Shown piece after piece: positions 6,064-36,040 of a stretch of 38,893 nt of DNA. The first letter of the stretch is position 1; each line of letters opens with the position of its first letter. Made by a program: the position numbers and the translations under genes. The notes below the pieces were generated by a model. The model worked only from the letters and a program-made list of their open reading frames with translations, was not told the DNA's origin and did no database searches. Source of the DNA: Nemertoderma westbladi (Eukaryota; Animalia; Xenacoelomorpha); NCBI GenBank assembly GCA_032718475.1, contig JAUCBJ010008039.1, forward strand, positions 1 through 38,893. Direction: 5' to 3'.

Positions 6064-7703
6064 AAATAAAATTTATAGCAGTTTGCTTTGTACCACAGTA
6101 CATACTCATTTATAAATCAGGTGGGACAACCAATCAAAATTTTATTTATATTTTATCCGATAGGCTATTTCTATAAATGCCACTATTACTGTATTACCGG
6201 CCGACCGGTACTGTTGAGGTTGACTGTATTACAGTATTACCGGCAGACCGGTACCGGTACTGTTAATTAAATCTGCTAGTGTATATATGTGTTTATGTTT
6301 TGGTTGATTGTGTGAATTATCGTATTCGTGGTCAGGTGGTGTGTGCCGGCAACTGTTACTGTACCTTACTGCCTTAGTTATGCTGTTATGTGTATATATC
6401 ATATCAGTATACAGGTATATGTCTGTATGTATGGAGCGTTTTGTTTGTGTGTATGGCCATTGCTGCATAGTAAAATAGACAATGTTTTGGATTTATTGTC
6501 GTTAAGGGTAACAGGTAAAGCCCAGTAGCGGAAGTTTTCGAATAAACATCCAAGAGCTGTCAACTGGCGATCTATTCTGTTCTGGTTGATATTACAGGCT
6601 GCTTGGTGTGAGACTTTTGTACTGTCGGCGTCTTTTTTGTGGACTTGAAAGAAAAAGTCATGGAAAAGGTAAGTTTCATTATATTTTGTCTATAGTCCGT
6701 TAGTAGATTTATAATACCGGTACATTATATTTCAAGTTAATTGTGGTATTATAACGCCCTGGATCAGTGGATCAGGTGAAAAGGGTAGGTAAACAAGTAT
6801 TTTAATACGGTCCCGTCATTAACTAGGCAGCTAGACCAATCTCTATAGCGGAATAGTGTCTATATTAGGCCTACAGTATATATACTGATATACCGGTACT
6901 TTTGCTCTTTTGTATAATATATGTTTAGAACCCTGATAAATAGGCCTATATTTATATATTTACCGGTTCTATGAAGGTATATTACAGTATTATATGGATG
7001 GCTAGACGTTGTAGTTGTTGAGTCTTTAAGCACAACCTGCATTGCAACATAGTTGTAGGGTATAGGCCTACTAATAATTTACTGTAATTAAAAGTAGGTC
7101 ATTTAAATATGCCTTATGTTATATAATACTATGCCCATTTGTTCAGTTTCTCTATACTTTATAATTTGAGTAGCCCATGGCGCAATTACATATAATTATT
7201 GATAGTCTATTCAATTGATCTTTTTTACTTACTTCTGTACTTATGTTATGTATTGCAGTAGGCAGGTAAGCTAGGCTACCGGTACTGTGCGACTTGCAAT
7301 TGCAGAATTGTATAACCTTTGTTTGGGTTTTATTACCGTATTATATTGGATATTTGGTCATAGGCCTATCCAAAATCCCAAGATATAGTTACATTCGTTC
7401 TAGATCATTAGAGTAAACGTGCAGACGTGTATCGTGTTGGTAGGCCTGGCCTACTACACTTGTATAGATATATACTGTAGATAGGTTACTATACTATAGC
7501 CTACTATAGCCTACTATAAAACTATATACTTTCTCATCTAGCTTACAGCAACCAATATTGAATTATTTAAGAACAGTAGTCATACACAAAACATACCGGT
7601 ACCAGTTAAATTTTCTGCCAGTATAAAGTACATATTTTTATTTACCTCTGGCATTTTCAACTATAATTTATAGTTTTTAGACTGGTAGGGTAATAAGGTA
7701 AAC

Positions 7704-10700
7704 ATGTCTCAAATTGAGAACCTTAGTGAGATCGGTAGTGAGACTGACCTTTCCATAGCATCAGAAAATATGTCTATTGTTAGTCAAAGTGTTAGTGAAG
7801 AAAACACAGAGTCTAGTGATGCAAATAGGAATAACCTTGATGTGCATTTGGGATGTTCAAACAAGCATTTACCATCTAAGAGAGCACAAGGATTTAGATT
7901 AGCATTTTCTGAGAAGGTTAAGAAGGTACTAAGGGTAGCTTATCAACAGGAGCGAGATACTACTATTTCATATGTTGCACTAAATGACTTTGTCAAACAG
8001 ATAACCGTGGCATATTATAGTACAAGTAATTCCTATAAAGAACTAGAGTTAGAACTTACAAACTTTGACAGTAAAAATTATAAGTCTCAATATACCAGCA
8101 TCACTACAGCTAGAGACAAAACATTAGAATGTAGTATAGATGCTATTAAGAGATTGCAGATCATAGCTCACCAGTGTCAATTTGCAACTTTAAATGTTGA
8201 CTTAATATTTGGGCCCTTGGCTCAGTCGGCTTTCCAAGAGGATCCTTCTAGGTCAGATGATACAATGATGAAACAGCCATCAGCTGCACAGTTCATTGAT
8301 GAAGTAGAAAGGTTGGAATCACAAGTTGAACCACAATATTCAGTGTCAAATGTTACTAAGGGTACAATTGATGAAATAATAAGAACAGAGCAGGGGAATC
8401 AGGAGTTACAAATAGGTTTGGCTCATAAACGCCTAGTATTACAAGCAGAACATAGACAACGACAATTAGAAATAGAAAAAGAACGGCCTTTTTTGCAAGA
8501 AATGGCATTGAAGGATGAGCTAGATATCAAACGTCAAGAAGAGGAACTGAAAATTAAGTTAAATTCTTCTACTAGAGTAGCAAAAATAATTAATTGCATG
8601 AGGACTAGTTCAATGAAATCTGGATCTGCAGTATCTTCTACTGCTGCAAGTAAAAGTTCTAAAAGGTCAAGTCTATTAACATTTCTTCACGCTGAACCTA
8701 GTGCTAGTATAAAACAGACCCATATAAATTCTACAGTGAATGTTACTTCATCACTATTGAAGCCAACCATAAGATGTCAAGGTACCAGTTATTCCACAGC
8801 AGTGGAAAGTAGTTTGAGTGTGTCATCCAATGTTGCACCATTATCTGTTACATCACCACATGTCCAAACAATAACAACCTCATCAAGTGGTTATGTTGTT
8901 GGTCAAAATACAGTACCCCAAGACCAACCACTATTTTTCATTGAACCTTTGCAACAGGATGTAAGATCTAAGCAAATGTCAACTCAGATATCTCAGGTGG
9001 AATCAAATAGAGGGAAAGTACACACCTCGACACCTTGTAACATAAATCAACAATCTAAGGAAGATATTAGTAAAAAATCCACTGATATTCTTAAAACAGT
9101 TCCAACAAGTTGTCATTCAGATCATTTTTCTTCTAGGATATTTATAAACAAGAATAGGTATAGTAAAGCCCCTGATCATGTTTCTGATTCTAAGAATATT
9201 TCAGAGGATAGGTTTGTTCATATCAATAATATTCACAAGCAGTTAGATGATGTGGATAAAAGATTGATTTCAATGGAAAAGAGTATAAGAACATCAAAAT
9301 CAGAAAATAATGAAGTGCTGGGGAGTATTTCTGAATCACTATTCAATGAAATGGGTACTATGCGAAATAAAATGGATGAAATATCCTCAAATACATTATA
9401 TATTAATGAGTTTCATGAATTACAGCAAAGTCATGCAATATTGTCAGACATAGTCTTTGCAAAGCAACACAAGTATGATACAGAGGAAGAAGGTTTAGTT
9501 TGGGAAGGTTATCAGGAGAGAGGTCCTCCTAATCAGGCATATTCTGCACAAGCTCCAGGACTAGCGACAGCTGCGGTACAGTCTTCCAATAATGTCCATT
9601 ATAATTCAGTATCCAAGCATCCAAATTCACATGCTACCGAATTGGCCATGGGAGTGGCACAGTATAGGAATAATCAGAATTCCAGTTATACTAACCCTTC
9701 GTTTCTACAAGCTACAACTTCAAGAGTGTCCACGGGAGCGGCACAAGGTCATAATGATAATACAAATGTAATATCGCAGGCAACTAATGAGACAAACTCA
9801 GTTCTATTTCCAAATGCATCAATTAATGCAGATTTATCTCAGCGGCAATTACTTGTAAATACACCAGTTTCCAAGACACCACCAGCACCTCCAAATTTAG
9901 ATTACGCCACACAGCCAACAGCACATCATTATAGGAATCCTCCAGGAATTATTGATTTATCTGGGGCAAGAATTGTTGAAGAAATGAGCAAATTAGCAGC
10001 TAAACAGTCATTGCCTCATCTATCCTTTCAGAAGTTCAGTGGTGATCCTCAAAAATGGTTAGGCTTTGTTTTAAATTTCCGTAGCTTTGTTTTAGACAAA
10101 CCTTTTTCGGATACTGAGAAATATACGTACCTACTCAATCTGCTTGACAAAGAACCCAAGAGATTTGTTGAGATTTATGATGGTACAAGAAATGCTTTTC
10201 AGAAGGCATGGGAATCTTTACAAGAACAATATGGAGATGAAAGAAGCTTAGCGTTGCAGCTTATGGATAGTATTTTCAGTGGTGACAGTATTAAGCATCC
10301 AAAAGATTTATTGTACTTTCAGAAGCAGTTACAATCAACTCGAGATAAACTTTCAACCTTGAAATTTGACTATTTATTAGATGATTTCAGTAGGTTACCC
10401 AAAATTATCGCTAGACTTCCAGATTATGTAAGAAAGAAATGGAGAAGGAAGGCTCAAGATTTGAGGGATAACAATCGCCAAGAAACTCTAGATGATCTAA
10501 TTTCTTTATTAAAGAAAGAAACAAAAGCTGAGAATGACCCTATTTACTCAGACAGGGCATTAGGTTGTACTGAAAGACGACATCATGGTTTGTCATTTAA
10601 GATGTCAGAGACTATCACAGATTCAGCAGATAAAGTCATGAATTCAGTTAGATTAGCTATAGATCATTTCTGTGTTCTTTGTCAAATTAAAGGGCACTCT

Positions 10701-12581
10701 TTGACTAAGTGTCAAAAATTTAGAGATACAAAATTATCTGGACGACGGGAATTAGTTAGAAAGCTTGAACTTTGTAAGAACTGTTTTTCTCAAAAACATT
10801 TTCGAAAAAACTGTCCATCGAGGATTAAATGTCAACACTGCCAAGGAAATCACCATACCTTGTTACATAGTGATGCTATGGTGGGAAAGGGAGTCTCCTG
10901 GAAAATGACTAAGGCAAAGACACAACTCCAAACAAAGCTAGCGAATCCAATTGTCAATACATCAACAAATGTGGTTCCTCAAACTGGTAGAGTTAATGCT
11001 ACAGTGCCAGTTTCTAACATCGATTATGAATCTGAAGATGAATACGAATTTGATTCCATAGATGGAGAATCAGATCTTGACAGTGTAACAATGGAAGGAG
11101 ATGATCATACAGATCAGTGTTATATGATAAAGAATAATTTAGACTATATGAAGTCATTTAATGTTATATCTTTAAATATTATTGGTTCAAAGGGATCTCT
11201 GAAAGTGAATGCATTATTAGATGATGCTAGTTCTGTATCATTTATTGACAAAGATCTTGCTGAAAAAATTGGAACATTGTATAGTGAGAAGTCATTGCCT
11301 ATTAAAACAATAGAAAAGGTAGTGCCTCTTAATGTAAGTTACTTAACTTGTGAACTTGATTCCATTGACAATAGTATACGACCTAAATATTTGCCATTGC
11401 GTAATATTAAGCTTGCAGCTTTGAAAGATTTTACAAAAGGGTTTGACAATGAGTATCAATGGACATCTTCAGAAAACAGTTATTTCAATAGTTTAGGTGT
11501 TCCAGAAATTGTTGTTGATGTTCCCAATATATCACTTCTTCTGGGCAATGATGTTTTCGAAGCTCATATGGTCTATGAATATAAACCCAGAATTCCACGT
11601 CCACTTGATATTTATGCTGCTAGAACACTATTTGGTTGGTATCGACGTGGCCCTATGAAAGCCACTCTAGTTAACAGGAAACTCTCAAATGAAATGACGT
11701 TTTTGTGTAGTAGTGATGTTTCTAAAAATAGTATGGATAAGGTAGCAACTTCACCCATTAAATTATATGAAGATGACTCAGACGTTGAGGAGAACATAGC
11801 TTATCCTGTAAACTTGACAGTGTCGAGGAATGATATTGATGAATTAATTACTGATAAAACAAGTCATATTAACATTGAACAATTGTTAGAAAGCGGTTTT
11901 GATAACCTGGATGTTGCAGCTGTTTATGAGAAAATATATAAGGAAGCATATTTAGATGAAGCTGTAAAAGCCTTTTTTGAGAAGGATACTCCTGATCGTG
12001 GATCTCATAGATTAGTAACAGAAGTAGAACACCTCAGATCAAAGAAAATCTTACAGACAACTACCAAGTTATTACCCAATGGGCACTATTCTGTTGGACT
12101 GCTTTGGAAAAATGATAACCCAAAGTTAATAAATAATAGACCATTAGCTATAAAAAGGGCTATGATGCTAAGACGACGTTTATTGAGTGATGCAGATGCT
12201 TATCGCATGTATCGTGCACAATGTGATGGCTATATTGAGAAAGGTTATATTATTCCAGTAGAACATCCAGAGATTACATCAGAGAGAACATATTATCTTC
12301 CACATCATTTTGTAACTGATCAAGACAAACCTGGAAAGGTTAGAGTTGTAAATGATGCTAAGGCCAAGTACAAAGGGATGTCATTGAACAGTCACCTTAT
12401 GGAGGGTCCTAATTTGACAAATTATATGTTAGGAATTTTGCTGCGAGTAAGTGAAAGGAAAATAGCCTTCTCGTGTGATATTGAAAGTATGTTCCACCAG
12501 GTTTACTGCTACGTTGAAGATCAAGACAGTTTACGTTTTTTATGGTGGCCAAATGAAGACCTTGAGGGAGGGAGAGCCTAA
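7704..12581 (+). CDS. BEL/Pao gag-pol polyprotein, 5' part (long low-complexity N-terminus, DUF1759-like capsid, three zinc knuckles, aspartic protease, RT N-half)
   Basis: FSGDPQKW...EKYTYLLNLL; CVLCQIKGHSLTKC, CKNCFSQKHFRKNC, CQHCQGNHHTLLH; ALLDDASSVSFI; YYLPHH, KVRVVND, SLNSHLMEGPNL, DIESMFHQV, LRFLW. Confidence 0.93.
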   Translation: MSQIENLSEIGSETDLSIASENMSIVSQSVSEENTESSDANRNNLDVHLGCSNKHLPSKRAQGFRLAFSEKVKKVLRVAYQQERDTTISYVALNDFVKQITVAYYSTSNSYKELELELTNFDSKNYKSQYTSITTARDKTLECSIDAIKRLQIIAHQCQFATLNVDLIFGPLAQSAFQEDPSRSDDTMMKQPSAAQFIDEVERLESQVEPQYSVSNVTKGTIDEIIRTEQGNQELQIGLAHKRLVLQAEHRQRQLEIEKERPFLQEMALKDELDIKRQEEELKIKLNSSTRVAKIINCMRTSSMKSGSAVSSTAASKSSKRSSLLTFLHAEPSASIKQTHINSTVNVTSSLLKPTIRCQGTSYSTAVESSLSVSSNVAPLSVTSPHVQTITTSSSGYVVGQNTVPQDQPLFFIEPLQQDVRSKQMSTQISQVESNRGKVHTSTPCNINQQSKEDISKKSTDILKTVPTSCHSDHFSSRIFINKNRYSKAPDHVSDSKNISEDRFVHINNIHKQLDDVDKRLISMEKSIRTSKSENNEVLGSISESLFNEMGTMRNKMDEISSNTLYINEFHELQQSHAILSDIVFAKQHKYDTEEEGLVWEGYQERGPPNQAYSAQAPGLATAAVQSSNNVHYNSVSKHPNSHATELAMGVAQYRNNQNSSYTNPSFLQATTSRVSTGAAQGHNDNTNVISQATNETNSVLFPNASINADLSQRQLLVNTPVSKTPPAPPNLDYATQPTAHHYRNPPGIIDLSGARIVEEMSKLAAKQSLPHLSFQKFSGDPQKWLGFVLNFRSFVLDKPFSDTEKYTYLLNLLDKEPKRFVEIYDGTRNAFQKAWESLQEQYGDERSLALQLMDSIFSGDSIKHPKDLLYFQKQLQSTRDKLSTLKFDYLLDDFSRLPKIIARLPDYVRKKWRRKAQDLRDNNRQETLDDLISLLKKETKAENDPIYSDRALGCTERRHHGLSFKMSETITDSADKVMNSVRLAIDHFCVLCQIKGHSLTKCQKFRDTKLSGRRELVRKLELCKNCFSQKHFRKNCPSRIKCQHCQGNHHTLLHSDAMVGKGVSWKMTKAKTQLQTKLANPIVNTSTNVVPQTGRVNATVPVSNIDYESEDEYEFDSIDGESDLDSVTMEGDDHTDQCYMIKNNLDYMKSFNVISLNIIGSKGSLKVNALLDDASSVSFIDKDLAEKIGTLYSEKSLPIKTIEKVVPLNVSYLTCELDSIDNSIRPKYLPLRNIKLAALKDFTKGFDNEYQWTSSENSYFNSLGVPEIVVDVPNISLLLGNDVFEAHMVYEYKPRIPRPLDIYAARTLFGWYRRGPMKATLVNRKLSNEMTFLCSSDVSKNSMDKVATSPIKLYEDDSDVEENIAYPVNLTVSRNDIDELITDKTSHINIEQLLESGFDNLDVAAVYEKIYKEAYLDEAVKAFFEKDTPDRGSHRLVTEVEHLRSKKILQTTTKLLPNGHYSVGLLWKNDNPKLINNRPLAIKRAMMLRRRLLSDADAYRMYRAQCDGYIEKGYIIPVEHPEITSERTYYLPHHFVTDQDKPGKVRVVNDAKAKYKGMSLNSHLMEGPNLTNYMLGILLRVSERKIAFSCDIESMFHQVYCYVEDQDSLRFLWWPNEDLEGGRA

Positions 12582-15516
12582 GGAGTATAAGTTTCAAGTT
12601 CACCCTTTTGGTGTAATTTGTTCTCCTGTCAATACTGGAAATGCATTAAAACAAACATCAACAGATAATAAAGATAAGTTTCTTCCAGAAGTTCATGAAA
12701 TGATTGGAAAGGATTTCTATGTTGATGATGGTTTTCATTCAGAAGATGATGTACAGAAAGCAATAACTATTGCTCTTCAAGTTAAGGAATGTTTGAAATT
12801 GGGTGGTTTTAATGTTACTAAATTTGTTAGTAACTCCAAAGAGTTTCTATATGGCATACCTCAAGAAAGTCGTGTCACTAGTAATCAAGATCTAGAGACA
12901 ATGCCACTACCTGTTTCGAAGATGTTAGGGATTCGCTGGGATCTCAACTCTGATAGATTATTTATTAGATGGAAGACATGGAAGAGCCCTAAGCAGTGGA
13001 CCAAAAGGCTTTGTGTAAGTCTGTTTAGCGCATTTTTTGACCTTATTAATATGATTAGTCCAGTTATACTGACAGCTCGACTTATTATACAGAAGTTGTG
13101 GCAACTTGATTTAGGTTGGGATACCGTTATTCCAGAAGAAAATGCGATGGAATGGAAAAGGTGGGCAAGTAGTATTCAAGGAATACAAAACTTTTCAATC
13201 CCAAGAGAGTATTTTCCTGGCTCACCAATAGTGGGAATATTTGATTATGAATTGCACTCATTCTGTGATGCTTCTGAAAAGGCTGTTGGTGTTGTGATTT
13301 ATCTAAGACGAATTTCAACAGATGGGAGTATATATGTTGCATTCGTAACATCAAAATCCAAAACTATTAACTCAAAGACATTTTTGTCGCTACCTCGGAA
13401 AGAACTTCTTGCTGCATCAGTGGCAGCAGAGTTAACAGATATGGTTAACACCAACTTATCTTTTCCACTAACATTAACATTATGGACAGATTCTATGCTT
13501 GTACTAGCATACCTGGTCACCCAGTTCCCTTTGAAAACCTATGAGGCAAATAAAAGATCTAAAATTTTAGATCTCACTATAATTGATCAATGGAGATGGT
13601 GCCCTGGGGACATTAATATAGCTGATATAGCCTCCAGAGGAACAACAATCGAAAAACTATTGGAGAATACCCAATGGACTAATGGCCCTGATTTTTTGTG
13701 GCAGGATAGAAACCAATGGCCAGTTACTGGTACTATCCATCCTTCTATAAATGCTAAATTAGAAACAAAGAAGTCAAATAGTTCTAAGAAAACAAAACCT
13801 ACTACAGTCTCAGTTAAAGATGATACCAAAATATATAATATGGATCATGGCAGAGACCTTAAAGATCAAAATGATCATATTGTTTATGAAGGCGAGGATT
13901 GTATTTTAGAAGAGTATGTACATTCTACGATTGTAAATTCTGAGTTTCCTGATGTTACAAAGGTGGATAAATTTTCTCAGAAACTATGTGATACTCTTAG
14001 TTCATGGAATAAACTCTGTATACGTACTGCATGGCTTATACGTTTTATTAATTGGCTGAAATCAAAGAAAACGTCGATGTATCCTAAACATATAACAATT
14101 GCAGAACTTAATTGTGCTGAGAAGAAACTAATAATTCTAGCTCAGAAACGTTCATATCCGCAAGAATACTTGATCCTTATGGATGGAAAGAAAGTATCTG
14201 ATACATCGCCATTATATAGGTATACACCTTTCCTTACAGATGGTGTAATACATGCAACTACCCGTCTGCCAATAGAAGATTATAATAAAGACTATTGTAA
14301 CCCAATTATTATACCACCAAACAATTATATACAACATCAGCTCATATGGGATGTGCATCTACAAACTCTGCATTCTGGGAGATCCATAATTATGTCAGAG
14401 TTACGTCATAAATATTATTTAGTAACTCAGCGAGCAGCATTGGATAAAGTTCTTAGAAATTGTATACAATGTAAACAATTTAACAGCAGACCCATGAAGC
14501 AACAAATGTCGGAAATACCAAAGGAGCGGATAACAGCATTTAAACCTCCCTTTTCAACAACAATGGTCGACCTTTGGGGTCCTGTTTCTTGCAAGAGAGC
14601 AAGGACAATGGTTAAACGGTGGTGTGTTATGTATACATGTTATGCAAGCCGGGCAGTGCACATTGGTAGGGTTACTGACCTTAGCACCAATGCGTTTATA
14701 TTGTCACTAAGAAGATTTATAGGTCGGAGAGGGACAGTTCAAAAAATTAGTTCAGATAATGGAACCAATTTTAAAGGAGCAGACAATGAGTTATCAAAGG
14801 CTGTGAAAAAATGGAATAAAAAACAAATTACATTAGAACTCCGTGACAAGGGAATAAATTGGGAATTTCATACAGCTAAAGCTCCATGGCGTTCTGGAAT
14901 GGTTGAGAGACTTAATCGATCAGTGAAACAAGCATTCTTCAAAGCTATTCCCCCAAATATGACATTAACAGATGATCAGTTTGTAACTGTGCTTGTCGAA
15001 ATAGAAGCAATAATAAATTCACGTCCTTTAGTAGGTCAAACCACTGATATTAATGACCCTCAGGTCATCACACCAGGACATTTACTTATGACCAATCCTT
15101 CTGCCATCATACCTCGTTGTGAACCTGAAGAATGTCACCAATATGCACGAAAGGCGTGGAAGGTAACGCAATATGTTGCTCAACGTTTCTGGGACCATTG
15201 GTTAAAATACTATATACCATCATTGAGTATCCGTTCCCAGTGGTATTATACCAATAGAAACCTATCAGTAGGTGACCTAGTTCTAATAACGGATGAGAAT
15301 ATACCCAGACGTAAGTGGTTAACTGCTAGAATATTGGAAGTGAAGCCTGACTCAGCTGGTCTTGTAAGATCTGTAGAGCTTCTAACCATCCATGGTTCCA
15401 AACTAAAACGCCCAGTACAACGACTGTGTTTATTGGAAGAAGCTCGGAAAGATATAGGTGACTACACCAAGAAATTGTCTCGTACAGATGCATTGAAGAC
15501 TTCTGTTTTGCATTGA
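12570..15516 (+). CDS. BEL/Pao gag-pol polyprotein, 3' part after the frameshift (RT C-half, RNase H, integrase, DUF5641-like C-terminus)
   Basis: HPFG, YVDD, LHSFCDASEKA, WTDS, NIADIASRG, H-H-C-C, VDLWGP, SDNGTNF, GMVERL, VGDLVLI; homology resumes at GEPKEY near 12570 within ORF 12475-15516. Confidence 0.93.
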
Positions 15517-16252: not shown

Positions 16253-16622
16253 GCACCACAATGCGCTTCTTTGATGATCGCACCACACTGCGCTTCTTTG
16301 ATGATCACACCACACTGTGCTTCTTTGATGATCGCACCACACTGCGCTTCTTTGATGATCACACCACACTGTGCTTCTTTGATGATCGCACCACACTGCG
16401 CTTCTTTGATGATCGCACCACAATGCGCTTCTTTGATGATCGCACCACACTGCGCTTCTTTGATGATCGCACCACAATGCGCTACTTTGATGATCGCACC
16501 ACAATGCGCTTCTTTGATGATCGCACCACAATGCGCTTCTTTGATGATCGCACCACACTGCGCTTCTTTGATGATCGCACCACAATGCGCTTCCTTGTCG
16601 CTTGCACCACAACGCGCTTCTT
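16253..16622 (+). repeat. 27-bp minisatellite, 13 units plus a partial, in the 3' UTR of the BEL element
   Basis: Unit GCACCACA(C/A)TGCGCTTCTTTGATGATC at exact 27-bp spacing. Confidence 0.97.
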
Positions 16623-21579: not shown

Positions 21580-21800
21580 TTAGTCTGGAGACTTATTTCC
21601 AGATGCTTCAAAAAAATTATATGTCGGCGGGTATTTTTTATGAATCACTCTCTCAGAAGTCCCTAAGCCAACTTTAATTCTCCTTGGTGCAACCATACTT
21701 GCAATACGGCATTATTCTATGGGGAGGTGCATATTCTTCTATATTAAAACCAATTAGAATAAATGTTAACAAAATTATTCACTGCATTACAATAAAACCG
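21580..21800 (+). mobile_element. Decayed LINE RT C-terminal fragment (CR1/L2/Jockey-like)
   Basis: SLVQPYLQYGIILWGGAY...KII matches the post-RT LINE motif PYL.Y...WG. Confidence 0.65.
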
Positions 21801-21809
21801 CCACCAAGT

Positions 21810-22105
21810 ATAATAATAATAATAATATTGATTATTTATATAGCGCTTTTCTACGCTCGGCATACCAAAACAGCTTTGTACATGTACAGTCAAGTATGCA
21901 CATATATATAAACCTCTGAATATTCTACCTCTACAGCAACTTTACAAGCACCAAGTAGGAATTTCTATGTTCGAACTATATAATAAACCTATTACCCCAT
22001 CCCCAACATTTAAAGCACTGTACCCAAATAGCGCTGCCCCATCTAGGGATCGAACAGGGCTTCCTATTTGGAAGCCCAGGAATGTCACCACTAGATCAAG
22101 CTGCT
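21810..22105 (-). mobile_element. tRNA-derived SINE (tRNA-Gly(TCC)-like head) with LINE-like tail
   Basis: Minus strand: A box TGATCTAGTGG (22098-22088), CTTCCAA anticodon-loop-like motif, B box GTTCGATCC (22055-22047), 3' end AAAGCGCTATATAAAT followed by (ATT)n. Confidence 0.7.
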
Positions 22106-22215
22106 GCTTGGTCTTGTGGTGACCACAATGTAAGAAATATATAAATCGTACAATTTTCAAATTCAACAGAACACAAATATAATTAAAATAATATTCGACA
22201 TATTTTCTTTTTCAG

Positions 22216-22362
22216 GATTCTCAATGTAATGTTGGAATTGGGATGCGCCAGCTAATAGACTTACTAAATAGTCAACCACCAATGACGATGTTATTGGGGG
22301 CCTCTTGTAGCATTGTTACTCAACCAACTGCACAAACATCTGCTAACTGGAATCTTATTCAG
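22216..22362 (+). CDS. Internal exon of a GABA-B-receptor-like class C GPCR (Venus flytrap / ANF_receptor domain): DSQCNVGIGMRQLIDLLNSQPPMTMLLGASCSIVTQPTAQTSANWNLIQ
   Basis: Acceptor ttttctttttCAG, donor CAG|GTACAT, 147 nt, phase 0/0; aligns with the GABA-B pattern DS.C....G...L.........G.CS.V....A.....WNL.Q. Confidence 0.85.
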
Positions 22363-23237
22363 GTACATATATTACCTGTAGCATTGTTACTGAACCAACT
22401 GCACAAACATCTGCTAACTGGAATCTTATTCAGGTACATATATTACCTGTAGCATTGTTACTCAACCAACTGCACAAACATCTGCTAACTGGAATCTTAT
22501 TCAGGTACATATTTTCCTTGTAGCATTGTTACTCAACCAACTGCACAAACATCTGCTAACTGGAATCTTATTCAGGTACATATATTACCTGTAGCATTGT
22601 TACTCAACCAACTGCACAAACATCTGCTAACTGGAATCTTATTCAGGTTCATATTTTCCTTGTAGCATTGTTACTCAACCAACTGCACAAACATCTGCTA
22701 ACTGGAATCTTATTCAGGTACATATTTTCCTTGTAGCATTGTTACTCAACCAACTGCACAAACATCTGCTAACTGGAATCTTATTCAGGTACATATTTTC
22801 CTTGTAGCATTGTTACTCAACCAACTGCACAAACATCTGCTAACTGGAATCTTATTCATGTACATATTTTCATTGTAGCATTGTTACTCAACCAACTGCA
22901 CAAACATCTGCTAACTGGAATCTTATTCATGTACATATTTTCCTTGTAGCATTGTTACTCAACCAACTGCACAAACATCTGCTAACTGGAATCTTATTCA
23001 GGTACATATTTTCCTTGTAGCATTGTTACTCAACCAACTGCACAAACATCTGCTAACTGGAATCTTATTCAGGTACATATTTTCCTTGTAGCATTGTTAC
23101 TCAACCAAGTGCACAAACATCTGCTAACTGGAATCTTATTCATGTACATATTTTCCTTGTAGCATTGTTACTCAACCAACTGCACAAACATCTGCTAACT
23201 GGAATCTTATTCAGGTACATATTACCTGTAGCATTGT
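22306..23237 (+). repeat. 71-bp tandem array (13 units plus 11 bp) derived from the exon 3' end and splice donor
   Basis: Unit TGTAGCATTGTTACTCAACC...CTTATTCAGGTACATATTTTCCT; first unit overlaps the exon. Confidence 0.97.
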
Positions 23238-23849
23238 ACCTATGTGTACGAATTTTAGTTTTTACTCTTGGTTATAATTATAATTGCTTTCTAGTATATA
23301 AACTTATTCACCATTTCAAATTAAAACGTCACATGAGTGAGAGTTCTCTCAAACAAACAGTATAAAGCTGCTGTACTTGGCAGGTTTCTACTACGGTACA
23401 ACATATAAGGTATAATATTATGGTGGAGTAGATACCTGTCAAAATACTTCCAAAGCATTACAAACAATAAAATGTTGGAAGTAGGTTAAAACAGTCAGAC
23501 ATCCTTGTAAACACAACCTATAGGCCTACTGTAGTTTAGTAGGTTCTTTTAGATCGCTGCAAAGTATCAACTCTATAAAGAATTTAAAATGGGCCGAAAT
23601 TAAAGCATTACAAACAACGAAATGGGAGAAGGATTTCATTTTCTAACAGTTATCGCTCCCTAACGGCAGACTGGGGAACTGCATACCGGTTAGCGTCCTC
23701 CCAAACACGCAGCCTATTATGGTCAGGTACATATCTGCAGAATGTGAGTTAGAACAGATTGTAACAGATGGTTCAACTGCTGTCATACAGTTTCCTACCT
23801 GCTGAAATAGTTTCGCCGAAGCCGGGACAGGCCCGGGTTTTAGAGAGTC

Positions 23850-23990
23850 CCGAATCGAAGTTCCCTGGCATGATCGGCTACTATGTCCATAGCCTCTGGG
23901 CTCGAAAAAAAGACATGAACCGAAAACGCCATAGGCGCAATGATAAAAACAGCAGCTGCTGTATATATGAAATTTAGAAGAGGGCCTAGT
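23850..23990 (+). mobile_element. Possible highly deleted LINE relic
   Basis: PGMIGYYVHSLWARKK resembles the APE segment LPGYYTWSMEATK of the LINE at 36041; MKFRRG resembles its RT thumb. Confidence 0.3.
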
Positions 23991-24354
23991 AATGCTATTC
24001 AATGTATTGGCCCAAACTGCAGAGAATTATATTACTTGCCAAGTTTTACAGTAAGCAAACAGAAACTATTACAGTAGTTTGCAATGTATTGCTCCGTCAA
24101 CTGATAGCTCTTTCCGGTGAATCCTATGGGAATATCCAAACAATAAACTAACAACTAATAATTGTGGCGGTGTATTTAATTTTAATTAATGCGACATTGA
24201 CCTCTTTATGCAATGCTTAGACAAACTATACTGTACAATATTACATTATATTATACAATACAATACATAGACGTACACCCAGAGGACTGGCCAGAAGTAT
24301 AGCCAGAATGATAGTATGAATGACCTCATTCAGGGACTCAAATAGATCAGTGCT

Positions 24355-26162
24355 GCAATTATAGAGGAATATCATCTATCATGTCAACTGTAGCGAAAGT
24401 GTACGATTTATTATTAGCAAAGAGACTGCTAAGATGGAGTAACCTAGATAAATGTCAGGCCGGGGGTTTACCTAACAGGGGATGCACGGAACATATTGTT
24501 GCGTTTACGATTGGTCGTTTACTGATAGACTGCTTTACACAAGAAACTAAGGTTGTATATAATATTCGTAGATTTCAAAAAAGCGTACGATCGGGTACCA
24601 CGGGATCTTTTGCTACAGACATTAAAATTACGTGGTTGTGGTAAAGTTATGTTATTAGCAATACAGGCAGTATATAATTGTACGAAACATATTTTGAAAT
24701 CTGCATTGTTCCTAACTAAGGTAGGTGTCCGCCAAGGGGCGCCCTCGAGTGTTATATTATTTTGTATCTATATTGATAAACTAGTACATATGGTGCGATC
24801 AGCTGTAAGGGAAGATGGGTTTTTAGGGGGAATACATATTCTGTTACTTATGGACAATACTATAATTTTTGCATCAAATAAGGTTAATGCGCTGAAGAAT
24901 TTAAATGCCTTAGTACTTTTTTTTACTACTTACGGGATTGGAAATCAATCAGAAAAAGACCAAATTCTTTACAATAAATGGCAACCTCTATGATAGAGGA
25001 CCTCTTGCTGTAAATAATTTGGTTGTCAATCATTGCGATAATTATGTATATTTGGGGGTGCCGTTTACGTCGGATGGTAAGGTAACAAGTACTCTCTCTA
25101 TGCATCAGTTGCGATGTGAAGAGACTGTAAATAAATTTAGTGTTTTTGCGGGAGTAAACACGAGCCTTCCATTTGTATTAAAGAAACGCGCATTTGATGC
25201 GGCGCTAATGTCGGGATTGTTATATGGGTCTGAAGCTTGGTTAACAAAAAATACTTTACAACTAGAAAAATTTTATTGCAAGATGGTAAAAAATTTACTC
25301 GGTGTGAGATGTCAAACACCAACAGATGTTTGTCTTGTAGAATTAGGTGTACCAAATCTTAAATATTTAATTAACAGCGCTAGAAAACGTTTTATGTCTA
25401 AGATGTTTAAAGAAATAGATTACGAGTTACCGTTTCATAAAGTCTTTGAATTGTGCAAATTAGCGAACACTCCTGGTTACAAAGCATTAATGATGCAGTA
25501 CTGCACTTGTGATGCAGTAGACCCTTTAATAGAAAGTAGAAACCGTATTTTAAGTAAACCACTTAGTGCTACTAAATTTTTAACATATCGCAGCGAAATT
25601 AATGTGCAATTAGTACCGCATCCTATTTATACAGCTATGAAACCTTTTGTGCCGGATTATTTGCGAATTTGGTTTACACGTTTACGGTTAATCTCTCATA
25701 ACTTAAAAATTGAGACCGGTAGGTGGTCGAGAATTAGTAGAGAAAACCGAGTTTGTGTATGTGATGACGTAACTGTTCAGACAGAAGCACATGTATTACT
25801 TAATTGCACTTTAACGGGAGAACTTCGAAACAACAGCAGCTTAAATTTTTACTCTTTGTCTACGCTAATGGGCACAGAAGAATACTATAAACTCTGTAAA
25901 TACATAACCGAGGTACTGGAAATATATAAGTAAGTACAGTAGATACAACAATTGAAGAATAGTATTAGTATATTTATATTGAATTGTGATTATCTTTTTT
26001 GGACGTTACTATGTCACTGTGTGCCGTATAAAGTTAAAATTTATGTTATTATTGAAAATTATTGTAACTTTTATTGTGATGTTGGTGAATTGTATATTTT
26101 GTGTATTTTGTATATTTTTGCGTTTAATTAGTACGTCAATAAACATATATATATATATATAT
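24355..26162 (+). mobile_element. 5'-truncated, frameshifted LINE (RT plus C-terminal zinc finger; L2/CR1-group-like)
   Basis: NYRGI, FVDFKKAYD, GVRQGAPSS, LLMDN (decayed DD), YVYLG, RLRLISHNLKIETGRW...CVC...EAHVLLNC over three frames; AATAAA followed by (AT)n tail. Confidence 0.92.
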
Positions 26163-26414
26163 AAGTACAAATAATAAATTATAATAATTGGCAATTTAGC
26201 AACTTGCCGGGGAGTAGTCGTAGTTTTGTGCTATTATAGTAGTAGAGATATTATTAGTCTCCCGCTCTATCAGGTACAGGTGGAACATATTGATATTTAC
26301 TACAGTATGTTATCAGAAATAATGTGATGAGAGACTTAAGTTGTGAAGGGCGTCGCAAAGGAAGGCAGGAAACCTAAGAGGTTGAGCTAGATTTGCGGCG
26401 GGCTAGATTTGCGC

Positions 26415-29243
26415 CCCATGGAGGACTCAACGTATTGCACATCGCCGTTGTGTGAATAACCTGATCCATGGAGGACTCAATGTGTTGCACATCGCATCGC
26501 CGCTGTGTGAATAACCTGACCCATGGAGGACTCAATGTGTTGCACATCGCATCGCCGCTGTGTGAATAACCTGACCCATGGAGGACTCAATGTGTTGCAC
26601 ATCGCCGCTGTGTGAATAACCTGACCCATGGAGGACTCAATGTGTTGCACATCGCCGCTGTGTGAATATCCTGACCCATGGAGGTCTCAATGTGTTACAC
26701 ATCGCCGCTGTGTGAATAACCTGACCCATGGAGGACTCAATGTGTTGCACATCGCCGCTGTGTGAATATCCTGACCCATGGAGGTCTCAATGTGTTGCAC
26801 ATCGCCGCTGTGTGAATAACCTGACCCATGGAGGACTCAATGTGTTGCACATCGCCGCTGTGTGAATAACCTGATCCATGGAGGACTCAATGTGTTGCAC
26901 ATCGCCGCTGTGTGAATAACCTGACCCATGGAGGACTCAATGTGTTGCACATCGCCGCTGTGTGAATAACCTGACCCATGGAGGACTCAATGTGTTGCAC
27001 ATCGCCGCTGTGTGAATAACCTGACCCATGGAGGTCTCAATGTGTTGCACATCGCCGCTGTGTGAATAACCTGACCCATGGAGGTCTCAATGTGTTGCAC
27101 ATCGCCGCTGTGTGAATAACCTGACCCATGGAGGACTCAATGTGTTGCACATCGCCGCTGTGTGAATAACCTGACCCATGGAGGACTCAACGTATTGCAC
27201 ATCGCCGCTGTGTGAATACCCTGACCCATGGAGGACTCAATGTGTTGCACATCGCCGCTGTGTGAATAACCTCACCCATGGAGGACTCAATGTATTGCAC
27301 ATCGCCGCTGTGTGAATAACCTGACCCATGGAGGACTCAATGTGTTGCACATCGCCGCTGTGTGAATAGCCTGACCCATGGAGGACTCAATGTATTGCAC
27401 ATCGCCGCTGTGTGAATAACCTGACCCATGGAGGACTCAATGTGTTGCAGATCGCCGCTGTGTGAATAACCTGACCCCTGGAGGACTCAACGTATTGCAC
27501 ATCGCCGTTGTGTGAATAAGCTGATCCATGGAGGACTCAATGTGTTGCACATCGCCGCTGTATGAATATCCTGACCCATGGAGGTCTCAATGTGTTGCAC
27601 ATCGCCACTGTGTGAATATCCTGACCCATGGAGGTCTCAATGTGTTGCACATCGCCGCTGTGTGAATAACCCGACCCATGGAGGACTCAATGTGTTGCAC
27701 ATCGCCGCTGTGTGAATAACCTGACCCATGGAGGACTCAATGTGTTGCACATCGCCGCTGTGTGAATAACCTGACCCATGGAGGACTCAATGTGTTGCAC
27801 ATCGCCGCTGTGTGAATAACCTGACCCATGGAGGACTCAATGTATTGCACATCACCGCTGTGTGAATAACCTGACCCATGGAGGACTCAATGTGTTGCAG
27901 ATCGCTGCTGTGTGAATAACCTGACCCATGGAGGACTCAATGTATTGCACATCGCCGCTGTGTGAATAACCTGACCCATGGAGGACTCAATGTGTTGCAC
28001 ATCGCCGCTGTGTGAATAACCTGACCCATGGAGGACTCAATGTATTGCACATCGCCGCTGTGTGAATAACCTGACCCATGGAGGACTCAATGTGTTGCAG
28101 ATCGCCGCTGTGTGAATAACCTGACCCATGGAGGACTCAACGTATTGCACATCACCGTTGTGTGAATAACCTGATCCATGGAGGACTCAATGTGTTGCAC
28201 ATCGCCGCTGTGTGAATGAATATCCTGACCCATGGAGGTCTCAATGTGTTGCACATCGCCGCTGTGTGAATAACCTGACCCATGGAGGTCTCAATGTGTT
28301 GCACATCGCCGCTGTGTGAATAACCTGACCCATGGAGGACTCAATGTGTTGCACATCGCCGCTGTGTGAATAACCTGACCCATGGAGGACTCAATGTGTT
28401 GCACATCGCCGCTGTGTAAATAACCTGACCCATGGAAGACTCAATGTGTTGCACATCGCCGCTGTGTGAATAACCTGACCCATGGAGGTCTCAATGTGTT
28501 GCACATCGCCGCTGTGTGAATAACCTGACCCATGGAGGACTCAATGTGTTGCACTTCGCCGCTGTGTAAATAACCTGACCCATGGAAGACTCAATGTGTT
28601 GCACATCGCCGCTGTGTGAATAACCTGACCATGGAGGACTCAATGTATTGCACATCGCCGCTGTGTGAATAATAAGACCCATGGCGGTCTCAATGTGTTG
28701 CACATCGCCGCTGTTTGAATAACCTGACCCATTGAGGACTCAATGCGTTGCACATCGCATCGCCGCTGTGTGAATAACCTGACCCATTGAGGGCTCAATG
28801 TGTTGCACATCGCATCGCCGCTGTGTGAATAACCTGACCCATGGAGGACTCAATGTGTTGCACATCGCTGCTGTGTGAATAAACTGACCCATGGAGGACT
28901 CAATGTGTTGCACATCGCCGCTGTGTGAATAACCTGACCCATGGAGGACTCAATGTGTTGCAGATCGCCGCTGTGTGAATATCCTGACCCATGGCGGTCT
29001 CAATGTGTTGCACATCGCCGCTGTTTGAATAACCTGACCCATTGAGGACTCAATGTGTTGCACATCGCATCGCCGCTGTGTGAATAACCTGACCCATGGA
29101 GGACTCAATGTGTTGCACATCGCCGCTGTGTGAATAACCTGACCCATGGAGTACTCAATGTGTTGCACATCGCCGCTGTGTGAATAACCTGACCCATGGA
29201 GGACTCAATGTGTTGCACATCGCCGCTGTGTGAATAACCTGAC
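26415..29243. repeat. 50-bp minisatellite, about 56 units
   Basis: Unit CCCATGGAGGACTCAATGTGTTGCACATCGCCGCTGTGTGAATAACCTGA head to tail, no spacers; a few variants with an extra CATCG. Confidence 0.98.
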
Positions 29244-29374
29244 ACTCCACCCTTGAGGAGTGTCAATTTGGAGATCAGCAACGATTTGATGCATTATTAG
29301 TTTCACAAGAATGCAGTGTTGAAATGTTGAAGGTTTTGTTTATTTTGTTACTTTACTATGTCAGCCTCTTTATG

Positions 29375-30200
29375 AATTACTTTACGCCGAGGACCTGGTA
29401 ATGTATGGAAAATCCATTGATTCTATACAAAATGCTTTAAATGATTTATCAAACTATTGCTAAGAGAACTGTCTTACAGCTAACCTGAAGTAAATCAAAG
29501 GCAATGAAATTTGGCCGAGCAGGCATCTAAATCCGACGTCTTAGTTTACCGAGATCAGCCTAGAGTTCATAAACAGTTTCTGCTAACGTGATGTTGTTCT
29601 CACAACAAAGAACTGGGCACTATGCTCATCTCTACAACTGGAAACGTTGAATTGCTTTATGCATGCGGATTACATCCAAGGTAGAGATGGTGGCCGTTTC
29701 TTTGGACAACTCATATAAACTGTGGCGCGTCACTACGAATATAGTGTGCTCTCCAATGCCAATCTGCCACATCCATCGCACGTAATTAATGTCAATGGAT
29801 TTTACTATAAAATCTGCTGCGGCGTAAGTACGCTTCTACAACCAGACTGCTGGATACTATTGATAATCCCAGGCACAATTTATTTCGAATGGCCACACCA
29901 TAATCTGTGTGGCAACTCTAAGTGGTGGGGTGGCGACACACTACTATCACAGAACCACAATTCAGCAATGTGGTTAAAGAACCATATTGCAGCATTACCG
30001 GTACTTGTAAGTAGCATAGAAAGAATCGCTTTCGAAAATACAAATACAAATATCACGTATTGCTGACAAATTTCATTTCAAATGAGGTCATATCTATGGA
30101 AAAAAATAACCCATTGCTTTGGATAACAGATAACACATTTTTGGTAATGGCTGTCACCTCTGTGCACATTGCACACACTTGCTGGCTCATCATAGGTCAG
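29375..30200 (+). mobile_element. Heavily decayed LINE RT C-terminal fragment related to the element at 36041
   Basis: YAEDLVMYGKSIDSIQNALNDLSNYC*ENCLTANL..KAMKFGRAG parallels FADDLL...LQAGLNALSEW...NLKKTAVIKFRRGG; right boundary approximate. Confidence 0.7.
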
Positions 30201-30688
30201 GGAAGGATGAACTCAAGCAAAGCATATACCACCACCGCCCAGCCCATGGGGATAAATCTCAGTACTGAAGCTAAAAGTCATAGTTAAGATAAATAGGAAG
30301 ATGAATTCGCCGATATTACAATGCTTAATACAATTAATTGGTGGTCTGTATCCATCAATTCATATCCCCGCACACTAGCTGCCCTATTCTGTGTTCCAAG
30401 CCAATTAAGTTGAAGGAGTTGTATGTCGCGCTATGCTTTTACTCCACTATGACTGTTGTTATTATGTATATTGTCCAGTTACGCTTTCAATCTGCTCAAG
30501 TATTGACAAGTCCGCAGCTTCAACTTCAACTTTTCCAATGTGGTGTTTGTTACTATCATTAAGCATTCTTCTTTTCTGCTCTTTGATATTATTAAGCTCG
30601 ACTTATATTACCTATGCTATAGAACCTGGACTTACGCTGAATTCGAGCTAGACTTAATTCAATCAATGTCACAGGGTGTAAGTATAGT

Positions 30689-30752
30689 ATAAAACACAAA
30701 ATAAGCGCATTAAAACACAAAATGAGCGCTATAAAACACAAAATAAGCGCTA
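30689..30752. repeat. 21-bp triplication
   Basis: TAAAACACAAAAT(A/G)AGCGC three times. Confidence 0.8.
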
Positions 30753-30881
30753 TTATGATAAGCGATATGGGGAAATTTAATGAATCTAAATTATACTCAA
30801 AATTATTTATTAAATAAAAATACATATATAAATATTCCAATGACAATTCAACGAAAAACTTAAAACCTGGTATTCTTCACC

Positions 30882-30959
30882 TGGGCGTCTCATTGTGTCT
30901 GTCCTCTTCTAGGTATCACATGGGCGTCTCATTGTGTCTGTCCTCTTCTAGGTATCACC
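30882..30959 (+). repeat. 39-bp tandem duplication spanning the splice acceptor
   Basis: TGGGCGTCTCATTGTGTCTGTCCTCTTCTAGGTATCAC twice. Confidence 0.95.
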
Positions 30960-31110
30960 TGTCTCCGGTTCACCAGCACTGATAAACCGAGCCCAATATC
31001 CTCTCCATATAGGAATCTATCCAACAGACTTGGAACTGAACCAACCCAGAATAAACATCATACGAAAGTTCAAATGGAAACGTGTCGCCACTCTCGTTCA
31101 ACTCGAAGAG
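30952..31110 (+). CDS. Next exon of the GABA-B-like GPCR: VSPVSGSPALINRAQYPLHIGIYPTDLELNQPRINIIRKFKWKRVATLVQLEE
   Basis: Acceptor tcctcttcTAG, donor GAG|GTTAGA, 159 nt, phase 0/0; colinear with GABA-B LSY.SSSPALSNR..FP.FFRT.P.....N..R.......W....T; continues the exon at 22216-22362 in frame. Confidence 0.85.
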
Positions 31111-33557
31111 GTTAGACAAAAACATTCCTATATTAGATTGATAATAAATTTATTTAATTACATGAATGGGGGGGGGGGGGGGACATACATTTTTATTAAT
31201 AAAAATCGCGATAAGTAGCAAGTTGGTGGTGATGATGGATGAAGTTATTGCTTTACTAAATACATGCTATTAACACAAAACAATTAAAAGTAGTTTTCCT
31301 GCGTTTATTGGAATTTATGAAACAATACTGACAATCAGAACAGCTAATTAAGGAGCAATAATTGCAATTTTGCAATATGTCATACTCATTTTTATTATAT
31401 ATGGTTGGGTCGAATTTCATACAATATAACTAAATCTCTGCAAATATAATACTCCAGAGCACTAAAAAATTATGGTTAATCAAATTTAAAAATAGACAGA
31501 GTCGTGAAGTTCTTACATATCGCACAGAATACTACAGAACACATTAATACAATAAACTATATGATATACTGCATGCAATGGTTGGAGGAGCGGCGTAGCC
31601 TATTATTGTAGCAAAACCTGAGTTAGTGGAGAACGCTGATAAGTTGACATTACGGTAATGTATAACAAAAACAAACACTAGTTTTACAAGAATTTGTGAG
31701 TGAAATTTATTAATTTCAGTAATATTGAGAGTGTTCAATTTGTATTAGGCCTTGGAAAGTTTGCTACCAATTTGATTAACAGTTAATACTAGTCTGTTTG
31801 TTTGTTTAGTCATTATAGGCCTGTATTGTGTATTCCAGTTGTGGGTCAATACGTGGTGGCGTTGCATTCATATACAGACGGTCTGTTTTTAGAGATATAA
31901 ACTGTATATCTTCATATGATGACATTGTAGGGATAAATGCACGTCTCCATGATTACCCTCCACTTTACACAATCTTGAGCTGCTACTTCCCAGACTCCTC
32001 CAAGGACTTAATGTGTTTGAAACATTCATTGGTAGACTGACTTCGCTAGTGGACCTGTACGATACAGCCATACCAATCATCCTGGCTGATACAAAGTCAG
32101 ATCTTGGCAATCTCCAGGGGCCCAGACATAATAGGGTCAAGGCGATAAGGTGTCCGTCTAAACGATTTCCTTCATAGTCAAGACCTTATTGCTATCGACA
32201 CGTATTCATTGGGACCATTCATTGGACCCTGCATCAGCTTTCCTAGAGGCACAGGCGTATCGTACATAGAACACATCATAACTACTCAACATGTATTTGA
32301 GCAAGTTATCAAAGGCAGAGTGGCGGATGCTGATCTAGCACTCAACTCTGATCACGACCCCATTTTCACAGACTGTCAGTTTAGAACGGTCGCGGATCTG
32401 CCTACAAATCCATCTCAAAAACTGGCGAGCTCTAGACCTGTAAAAATCGCTTGGAATAAGGTACAGAGTCAACATAAAGAGAACTTTCAGCTGTTTCTTT
32501 TACTGTGGAAGCCTCAAAACGCCGTTAATTGGTCTGCAACAGAGTTAGGACAGTTTGCAAACACACTGGAAAACGCAATCTTAAAGGCAGCTGTAATCCA
32601 CCTCAAACATTGTCAGTTTTCTCATAAAACAAAGAACCACCGAATACAATCGTCTCTGCTTTGTAATTGCACGAAAACCTGCCAGAAAGAACCCAGCTGT
32701 GGTGGCAGGATGGAAGGTCTGACACTAGCTTATATAAGGAGCCATTTAGAGAGTCTCGTCATGCCACAAGTCGCTTGAAGAACTTTCTTTTAAAGAACAT
32801 GTTATCCAAGAGGTTGAGGCTCAATGCAAGCAAATTGTCTAGCAAGCCCAAGGAATTCTGGCGATTCGTCAAGGACAAATCTTCTTCTTCACCTCTGGCT
32901 CAGGAAATTATCAAGGAGGACTTAATCGACATAAACAAAGAAAATCCGGATGCTTCTACTAAACTGAAGTCTCTTCAGGCCAAATTTCAGTCCAAAGCTG
33001 ATGCTGCAACATGTCCAGTCATATCGAAGGCCACTGTTCACCATGCTATACATACACTCCATCTCACTTGGGAAATCTCCAGATGCAAATGGGGTCACAA
33101 TGGAGAACATTTTGTCACTTGATATGGACTTTATCACAGAGGAACTTGAGGATCTTATAAATACCTGCTTTAGTCTCGGTGAACTTCCATCTATGTTCGG
33201 CACAACTCTAACCACTAGCTTCTACAAGGGAAAAATCGACCAATTTTATCACCAAAATCGTATCATCCAATATCTACCGAATGGATATTTGGGAAAATCT
33301 TCGAGGGTGTTGTATTACATTACTGTCTACAGTCATTGGTCATCCCGAGCCTCTAAGTAGTTGCATACCAAAGGAAGATTAGTTCGGACATAATTATCGC
33401 AGCTGTTCTAGAATTTATTAATTATCAAAGATAATGCGGCCAATCTTTATACATCTCTAGATATCCAGAGCGCCTTCAATAAATTAGAGTATGACTTGCT
33501 TTTCCAGAACTATCAGAAATTATAAATCCCCATATCTGCCTTGCTCTTATAAGTTAC

Positions 33558-35314: not shown

Positions 35315-36040
35315 GTTACTACATCTGTACAACATCCCAACTAAAGTTCGACGACATCATTGATAAAGATTGCATAAAATTTGTATGTGGAATTAAACAA
35401 GGCTCACTGCCTGACTGCTATCACCGATCTTCTTCATTATATATATAGCCAAATCCATTTCCCCATTTCCAGGAAACAACAATTTTATTAGTATGTGGAT
35501 AGCTATGCTGGTATATGCGGATGACTTCCTTGTATTTGGCAGGACGCTGGCTGAGTTGGAGCGGACAATAGGTACACTGAATGCAGGTCTAGCCAAGGGT
35601 GAAACTAAAGTTCAAGGACTCTAAAACTAAATGGTCGTACTGCCCGGGTCTGAACCAACCAAAAGGATGCAATCAAACATTCCTTAAAATGAATGGCTCA
35701 CTAATTTTCGAAGATCCATTTGTTACTTTCTTGGGTTCCAAGATGCCTTACCTGAGCTCCTCATCTGCTGCAAAAGATGCGCACGCAACAGGCGATCTGT
35801 AGGATGTCTGTAGGATGGACAACATGTCACTGTAACTGCAATACTATTGGACATCTGTGGCACCTTGTGGCATTACCTACTATCATACATTCTACCAGAT
35901 ACTTAATTGTCTTCTGTGGATCAGATCAGGGAGAATAAGATTAGCTACCGGAAAGCTCTACACAGTATTCTGCACCTTGGCTCATATGTTGACAATGCCG
36001 TGATTTATTCCCTACTAGAATGCCGTCCCATCTCTAGTAA

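Follow-up and report, generated by a model that had tools for sequence, protein, structure and literature searches.

The array described here is best explained, with good confidence, as a young minisatellite copying the existing exon–intron junction of a spliced gene for a GABA-B-like receptor. Slippage at an 11-base match likely gave rise to it, and splicing likely proceeds from the first donor while the twelve extra donors stay silent. It is a 'mirage' minisatellite and most likely an unexceptional member of a class of repeats described before in human and lancelet genes. The window analysed is the whole of contig JAUCBJ010008039.1 from Nemertoderma westbladi (38,893 nucleotides, forward strand). 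Sequence matches were compiled from four public runs of one organism, of which X1–X3 are DNA from two samples (X2 and X3 being one sample) and X4 is interpreted below as transcript-derived; the run queries included only the first unit of the array, and contigs rather than whole alleles were compared. The receptor features of the window are as follows:

22196–22215, + strand: acceptor of exon A, 11/12 pyrimidines and CAG; the X4 contig exits the window here into another exon
22216–22362, + strand: exon A, 49 codons, phase 0/0, predicted Venus-flytrap domain of a GABA-B-like class C GPCR (Pfam, PDB, X4 contig with one letter different)
22360–22368, + strand: authentic donor (donor 1), CAG/GTACAT, from which the X4 contig joins to 30952
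30952–31110, + strand: exon B, 53 codons (Pfam, GABA-B matches); the X4 contig continues from exon A into the first 33 nt of it, and its 3' end is placed from sequence alone

The gene is, by its domain matches, a predicted GABA-B-like class C GPCR with a flytrap domain closest to the GABA-B subunits. Exon B matches Pfam ANF_receptor at 79–127 (E 6e-6), at a profile position consecutive with the 31–77 match of exon A, which falls below the cut-off on its own (E 0.063). All 17 PDB matches of exon A (17/17; top match GABA-B subunit 2, E 5e-9) and the best 17 of 21 of exon B (E 1e-4) are GABA-B subunits, and on the flytrap domain of these subunits (PDB 9jqx_B, 4mqe_A) the matches of the two exons lie in the expected order. 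In contrast to them, the present gene is known from two exons in the window, and 'GABA-B-like' denotes closeness, not subunit type or orthology. An Atlas search returned ANF_receptor clusters only, and homologue searches with exon A or exon B returned nothing (5 and 6 candidates, none scored). A Pfam scan of the 230 + strand ORFs of the window revealed no further receptor exon, seven-transmembrane exons included; the remainder of the gene lies beyond the window. A 20-nt piece of the upstream exon in the X4 contig has no match in the window at up to three mismatches. A sister copy of exon A in the DNA runs is 93% identical (9/125 letters differ); since five of the six listed changes are synonymous, the exon has been maintained as coding sequence. 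Over 22214–22338, run X1 contains three versions of exon A (the window type, a one-letter variant and the 93% identical copy), which suggests at least two loci or a pooled sample, and a recently expanded receptor family.

The donor of exon A is embedded in a tandem array:

22304–23237, + strand: minisatellite, 71 bp × 13.2; unit composed of the last 52 nt of exon A and the first 19 nt of the intron; junction contigs in X1–X3
22382–23231, + strand: twelve intronic copies with pseudo-donors, read from the sequence; a TAG pseudo-acceptor precedes each, with CTAAC 35 nt ahead of the TAG

Tandem Repeats Finder assigned a period of 71 bp, 13.2 copies and 97% matches to 22304–23237, which straddles the existing donor of the receptor exon (22216–22362). 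The array comprises 13 units of 52 exon-derived nucleotides with GT directly after every one, and the units differ by distinct variants despite their 97% identity. A common 19-nt linker (type B) is exact in 7 of the 12 full linkers, and two more are one base off it, one of them with GTT instead of GTA at +3. The linkers of units 1, 2 and 4 are of another type (type A, GTACATATATTACCTGTAG), which includes the real intron start, and the final linker is 17 nt long; type A lies at both ends of the array and type B in the middle. Eight of the twelve pseudo-donors are identical to donor 1, matching it across the 52 exon bases and at least 8 intron bases, one has T at +3 and three have T at -1, the last reflecting a CAG to CAT change in units 8, 9 and 12 (3/13). 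The organization is thus that of a mirage: units within 10–160 bp are arranged head to tail, the first copy lies across an exon–intron boundary (71 bp = 52 exon + 19 intron), and the splice signal is repeated in many but not all units (8/12 extra donors unchanged, 4 altered). As a repeat, the array exceeds chance; because all copies descend from a single event, however, the splice-like features of the units represent one draw, not twelve. A first-pass annotation of the sequence had correctly recognized a GPCR exon end and donor amplified 13-fold (class C by Pfam and PDB) and three units with CAG changed to CAT; its 19-nt linker in every unit describes seven of the twelve exactly, with two differing by one base, three belonging to the other type and the last one having 17 nt.

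The array is real: linker-to-unit junction contigs are present at high depth in X1, X2 and X3, three DNA runs from two samples. Unit depth is 258–372 versus 16–59 for single-copy exon contigs in the same runs; the corresponding ratios are approximately 13–20 (X1), 8–10 (X2) and 6–11 (X3), where depth is not a copy number. The X1–X3 contigs, which drop minor branches, contained neither type-A linkers nor the exit of the array as it stands in the window, and this absence carries no weight. The array was not spanned in full by any read or contig and the count of 13 comes from the assembly, but the probability of an assembly artefact is negligible: the junction contigs in all three runs, the unit depth and the distinct variants of the units already refute an artefactual origin of the array itself.

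The DNA runs also contain a second intron start, which continues as unique sequence and matches the same place in the exon over 12 nt; its depth is near that of the sister copy, to which it may belong. The sister copy, which is without the window's array exit, has the same AG|GT junction with the intron at the same place. The intron predates the repeat.

None of the four runs is indexed as RNA; the index label of X4 is 'DNA?', and the run was taken as RNA from its joined exons and absent intron cover, not from the label. A single 2116-nt contig covers 22215–22365 with one letter different and continues with the letters of 30955 onward, joining 22362 directly to 30952, i.e. donor 1 to the downstream, in-frame acceptor, as had been predicted from the sequence. 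Upstream of exon A, this contig contains a stretch that is absent from the window and open in frame by eye, and its depth is flat at 28 across exon A. X4 shows no contig cover on the linker at 22366–22381 or on the unique intron, and the form joining exon A to exon B is absent from DNA runs X1–X3. Because the exons are joined, the unique intron is uncovered and X1–X3 have no such join, X4 is best read as a transcriptome or cDNA run. A retrocopy as the source of the contig was rejected, given the missing cover of the unique intron in X4 and the missing joined form in X1–X3. The one-letter change in exon A of X4 is like an allele seen in X1–X3; X2 and X3 carry the array, which may or may not lie on that allele.

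Donor 1 is used in the observed transcript, which points to regular splicing at the authentic site, as judged from one contig in one run whose contigs drop rare forms and from an animal that may or may not carry the array. The first-pass annotation had named universal use of the 22362–30952 junction as the result that would count against its reading; the observed join agrees with such use, within the same bounds of one contig and one animal's genotype. Inclusion of a unit as an exon was not seen in X4, the one transcript-like run. The absence of poison forms is weak evidence either way, since NMD would hide them too, and low-level leakage to other donors, beyond contig resolution, is possible.

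The coding consequences of the extra signals were enumerated for paths with no more than one additional intron, set at a minimum of 60 nt. Of the resulting 1118 paths, 20 are open and 1098 closed. The open ones consist of the normal path, nine zero-length recursive CAG/GT paths that leave the mRNA unchanged, and ten that run via donor 2 plus one 52-nt unit, a combination that would add 123 nt, free of stops, and 41 residues. Read-through from donor 1 meets TAG at 22450–22452, and a 52-nt unit spliced in phase 0 reaches a stop at codon 12, so unit inclusion would bring a premature stop, as in a poison exon. Both stops had been anticipated in the first-pass annotation, as had the decoy nature of the extra donors, most alternative uses of which insert a stop. 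Its statement that only the first donor keeps the frame applies to one-step choices and fails for the ten paths through donor 2 and one unit (+123 nt).

As acceptors the units are of uneven quality. True acceptors here have 11/12 pyrimidines. The common linker has 10/12 before its TAG, which is equalled by 13 of 1008 background AGs (about a 5% chance per 71 nt), and the older type-A linker has 8/12, equalled by 135 of 1008 (about 50% per 71 nt); the acceptor-like site attributed by the annotation to most units is therefore apparent in the common linker and hardly so in the older one. The CAG of the unit has 7/12, a value reached by 258 of 1008 background AGs. CTAAC (background frequency 0.07 per 71 nt) lies 35 nt before the TAG, yet 16 nt before the unit's own CAG. 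Use of the TAG pseudo-acceptors is probably hindered by two elements that separate them from the CTAAC, a live donor and the nearer CAG, and also by the 19-nt linker, which is far below the minimal intron of about 60 nt given in PMC3265369. On the latter ground, the linker was also rejected as an intron in its own right. Two units look like fair candidates for cryptic exons:

22950–23001, + strand: unit 10, best cryptic-exon candidate by sequence, with an intact donor after the unit
23163–23214, + strand: unit 13, second such candidate by sequence, with the preceding donor weakened and the following donor intact

Before unit 10 the donor is weakened to CAT, so that no AG precedes the TAG downstream of CTAAC. 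Point changes show no significant concentration in the splice signals (2/5 events in the donor 9-mer, P=0.12), selection against decoy signals is not significant (P 0.12 and 0.18), and masking of decoys by RNA structure found no support (z -1.23; 9/100 shuffles fold equally well).

These signals could be taken to form a poison cassette tuned by copy number, in which inclusion of a 52-nt micro-exon or use of a later donor lowers receptor mRNA through NMD. The acceptor-like TAG with 10/12 pyrimidines and CTAAC at -35, the weakened donor before and intact donor after units 10 and 13, and the 1098 of 1118 closed paths fit such a role, and human data offer precedents, as the CBS and 6-16 genes use two pseudo-donors besides the true one (PMC1557585) and splicing is linked to repeat length at many human loci (PMC10078293). 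On the other side, X4 contains one unbranched contig at donor 1 with the linker uncovered, the 97% identity of the units gives no sign of age or conservation, and no copy-number variation is demonstrated; the cassette is thus unlikely. The micro-exon use and NMD dial put forward in the first-pass annotation are likewise disfavored by the X4 contig and by the human cases described in PMC1557585, which mostly use the first donor. A more specific version, with units 10 and 13 as poison micro-exons that set receptor dose and an in-frame receptor of +41 residues made via donor 2, would be a mirage caught making new exon–intron structure. It is decidedly unlikely, and retains some weight because each unit combines a pyrimidine tract and TAG with a branch-like CTAAC and a donor that is still live, and because the better acceptor has spread while three donors have decayed. 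Conversely, the array may have damaged its allele, with downstream donors winning, most mRNA out of frame and the clean transcript coming from an array-free allele or animal. The intron-proximal of two equal donors is preferred in other systems, and here eight downstream donors cannot be told from donor 1 across the 52 exonic and at least 8 intronic bases; moreover, loss may be tolerated given the close family copies, and the X4 animal may lack the array. Yet exon A of the window is open and one letter from the transcript, the array occurs in both DNA samples on differing exon A haplotypes and is thus probably common, and F7 minigenes always use the most upstream live donor (PMC1557585), which makes a damaged allele quite improbable.

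Finally, an intron could be in the course of being gained, either by AG/GT duplication or by a unit taking over as an exon, with the CAG/GT copies as possible recursive sites. The model has been put forward for mirages (PMC3087553), and the 1118 paths include ten open ones through donor 2 and a unit (+41 residues, two introns replacing one) and nine recursive ones. The classic model, however, requires an exonic AGGT (PMC3443670, PMC3265369), whereas the duplicated AG/GT is the existing donor of the 8.6-kb intron, not a site inside a coding exon, and this junction, common to the 93% identical sister copy, is older than the repeat. The intron gain proposed in the first-pass annotation is not supported, for this reason. 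In addition, the unit CAG is an ordinary AG by its pyrimidines (7/12, as in 258/1008 of the background), a 41-residue insert would interrupt the flytrap domain between positions 77 and 79 of the profile, and the +41-residue form was not seen in X4. Intron gain is accordingly very improbable.

The preferred reading remains a young minisatellite with regular splicing at donor 1. Donor 1 would win by its place as the donor that comes first downstream of the strong acceptor of the exon, a rule tested in human F7. Rare mis-spliced products would mostly bear stops and be removed by NMD, as noise, and we propose that the array persists because the first exon end was left intact. Its likely origin is indicated by a short direct match at its two ends:

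22306–22316, + strand: 11-nt match TGTAGCATTGT, left copy, inside the exon, identified from the sequence
23227–23237, + strand: 11-nt match TGTAGCATTGT, right copy, in the intron at the array end; likely seed of the first slippage

A direct repeat of this length is found in 4 of 104 background 150-nt windows. The first copy may have been produced by slippage or mispairing between the exon and intron copies of the match, followed by unequal exchange to 13 units. The terminal match could alternatively be a truncated last unit and not the seed. Taylor and Breden are said to have described, in 2000, the birth of minisatellites at noncontiguous repeats. The type-A linker would be the older form and type B a derivative in the middle of the array, and CAT in three units probably reflects the spread of one G>T mutation. 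The linker type that spread (9/12) is the better acceptor, with 10/12 pyrimidines versus 8, partly because type B ends in the exon's own CTTGTAG.

Just before the exon A AG, the intron sequence of the window at 22120–22213 was found in X1 alone, and the X1–X3 contigs of the other allele and of the sister copy have different sequence right up to this AG. The window's haplotype thus seems to carry a replacement for the pyrimidine tract of the exon A acceptor. The 22120–22213 region and the common array linker have ACATATTTTC in common.

The closest known counterparts are the mirage minisatellites of amphioxus, tandem copies of exon–intron boundaries in Adh3 and the globins BflGb6 and BflGb9, which affect both 5' and 3' boundaries and are reported to leave regular splicing undisturbed (Ebner et al. 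2010, PMC3087553). As in the present array, a boundary of an animal gene is copied in tandem as units of 10–160 bp with many AG/GT signals; in contrast, length instability was demonstrated in amphioxus and not for this array, and the present case is a class C GPCR with duplications at both ends of one intron. Creation of a new intron through exonisation of a mirage unit was published as a hypothesis (PMC3087553, Fig. 7 legend). In the human F7 intron 7 37-bp VNTR, only the most upstream live donor was used in minigenes (Borensztajn et al. 2006, PMC1557585). The same source lists the F7, lamin B2 and PDGF arrays as using the first donor only, and the CBS intron 13 and 6-16 arrays as using two pseudo-donors besides the true donor. 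The F7 array likewise has its first unit across the exon–intron boundary, followed by identical pseudo-donors, with the most upstream donor used (here in the one transcript contig), but its unit consists largely of intron sequence (4 exon + 33 intron nt) and not, as here, of exon sequence (52 + 19); the unit here additionally has a TAG acceptor-like site and CTAAC, and the two cases differ in species and copy-number data (PMC1557585). Intron gain by tandem genomic duplication, in which an AGGT inside an exon is duplicated to give the donor and acceptor of a new intron (PMC3443670, PMC3265369), shares the duplicated AG/GT, whereas here the site was already a donor and no new intron was seen.

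The array thus adds one invertebrate-type case to a known class, again with use of the first donor. It also provides a natural substrate: eight of the extra donors do not differ from the true one, matched units can be compared in which the preceding donor is weakened or intact, and the intron ends in a duplicated acceptor. If unit inclusion were shown, the array could serve to test directly whether mirage units turn into exons and thereby create introns, as published but untested so far, and would be a simple instance of receptor dose set by repeat length.

The acceptor of this intron is likewise duplicated:

30877–30958, + strand: 39-bp × 2.1 duplication of the acceptor of the same intron (TRF, sequence; 7-nt end match)

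The upstream decoy AG (30911–30912) shares 20 identical nt with the true site, and its use would insert 13 codons in frame, ending in TAG; the X4 contig uses the downstream AG. Both ends of the 8.6-kb intron are therefore duplicated, where about 0.02 further splice-site hits would be expected given the first, an after-the-fact figure. The 844ins68 variant of CBS, a single duplication of an intron/exon acceptor junction, resembles 30877–30958; it parallels this 39-bp side duplication and not the 71-bp array (PMC4479818).

Arrays make up 11.6% of the window, and the remainder is largely retrotransposons and other repeats. Two more large minisatellites, at 26415–29243 (50 bp × 56, in the same intron) and 16253–16622 (27 bp × 13.7), are unrelated to exons as far as seen. 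Short dispersed repeats at 21800–21870 and 22005–22115, SINE- or MITE-like, reach depths of tens of thousands in X1–X3 and occur also in X4. A 215-codon + strand frame at 2–646 and short + strand frames at 3913–4405 have no Pfam match. LINE-type elements are located at 36041–38788, 24529–25930, 32149–33522 and 35415–35621, as a 916-codon endonuclease/reverse-transcriptase frame and several fragments. A Bel/Pao LTR retrotransposon occupies 7689–15513, probably within the upstream intron; it has two long open frames, of 1630 and 1016 codons, and contains DUF1759, Peptidase_A17, an integrase zinc domain and DUF5641.
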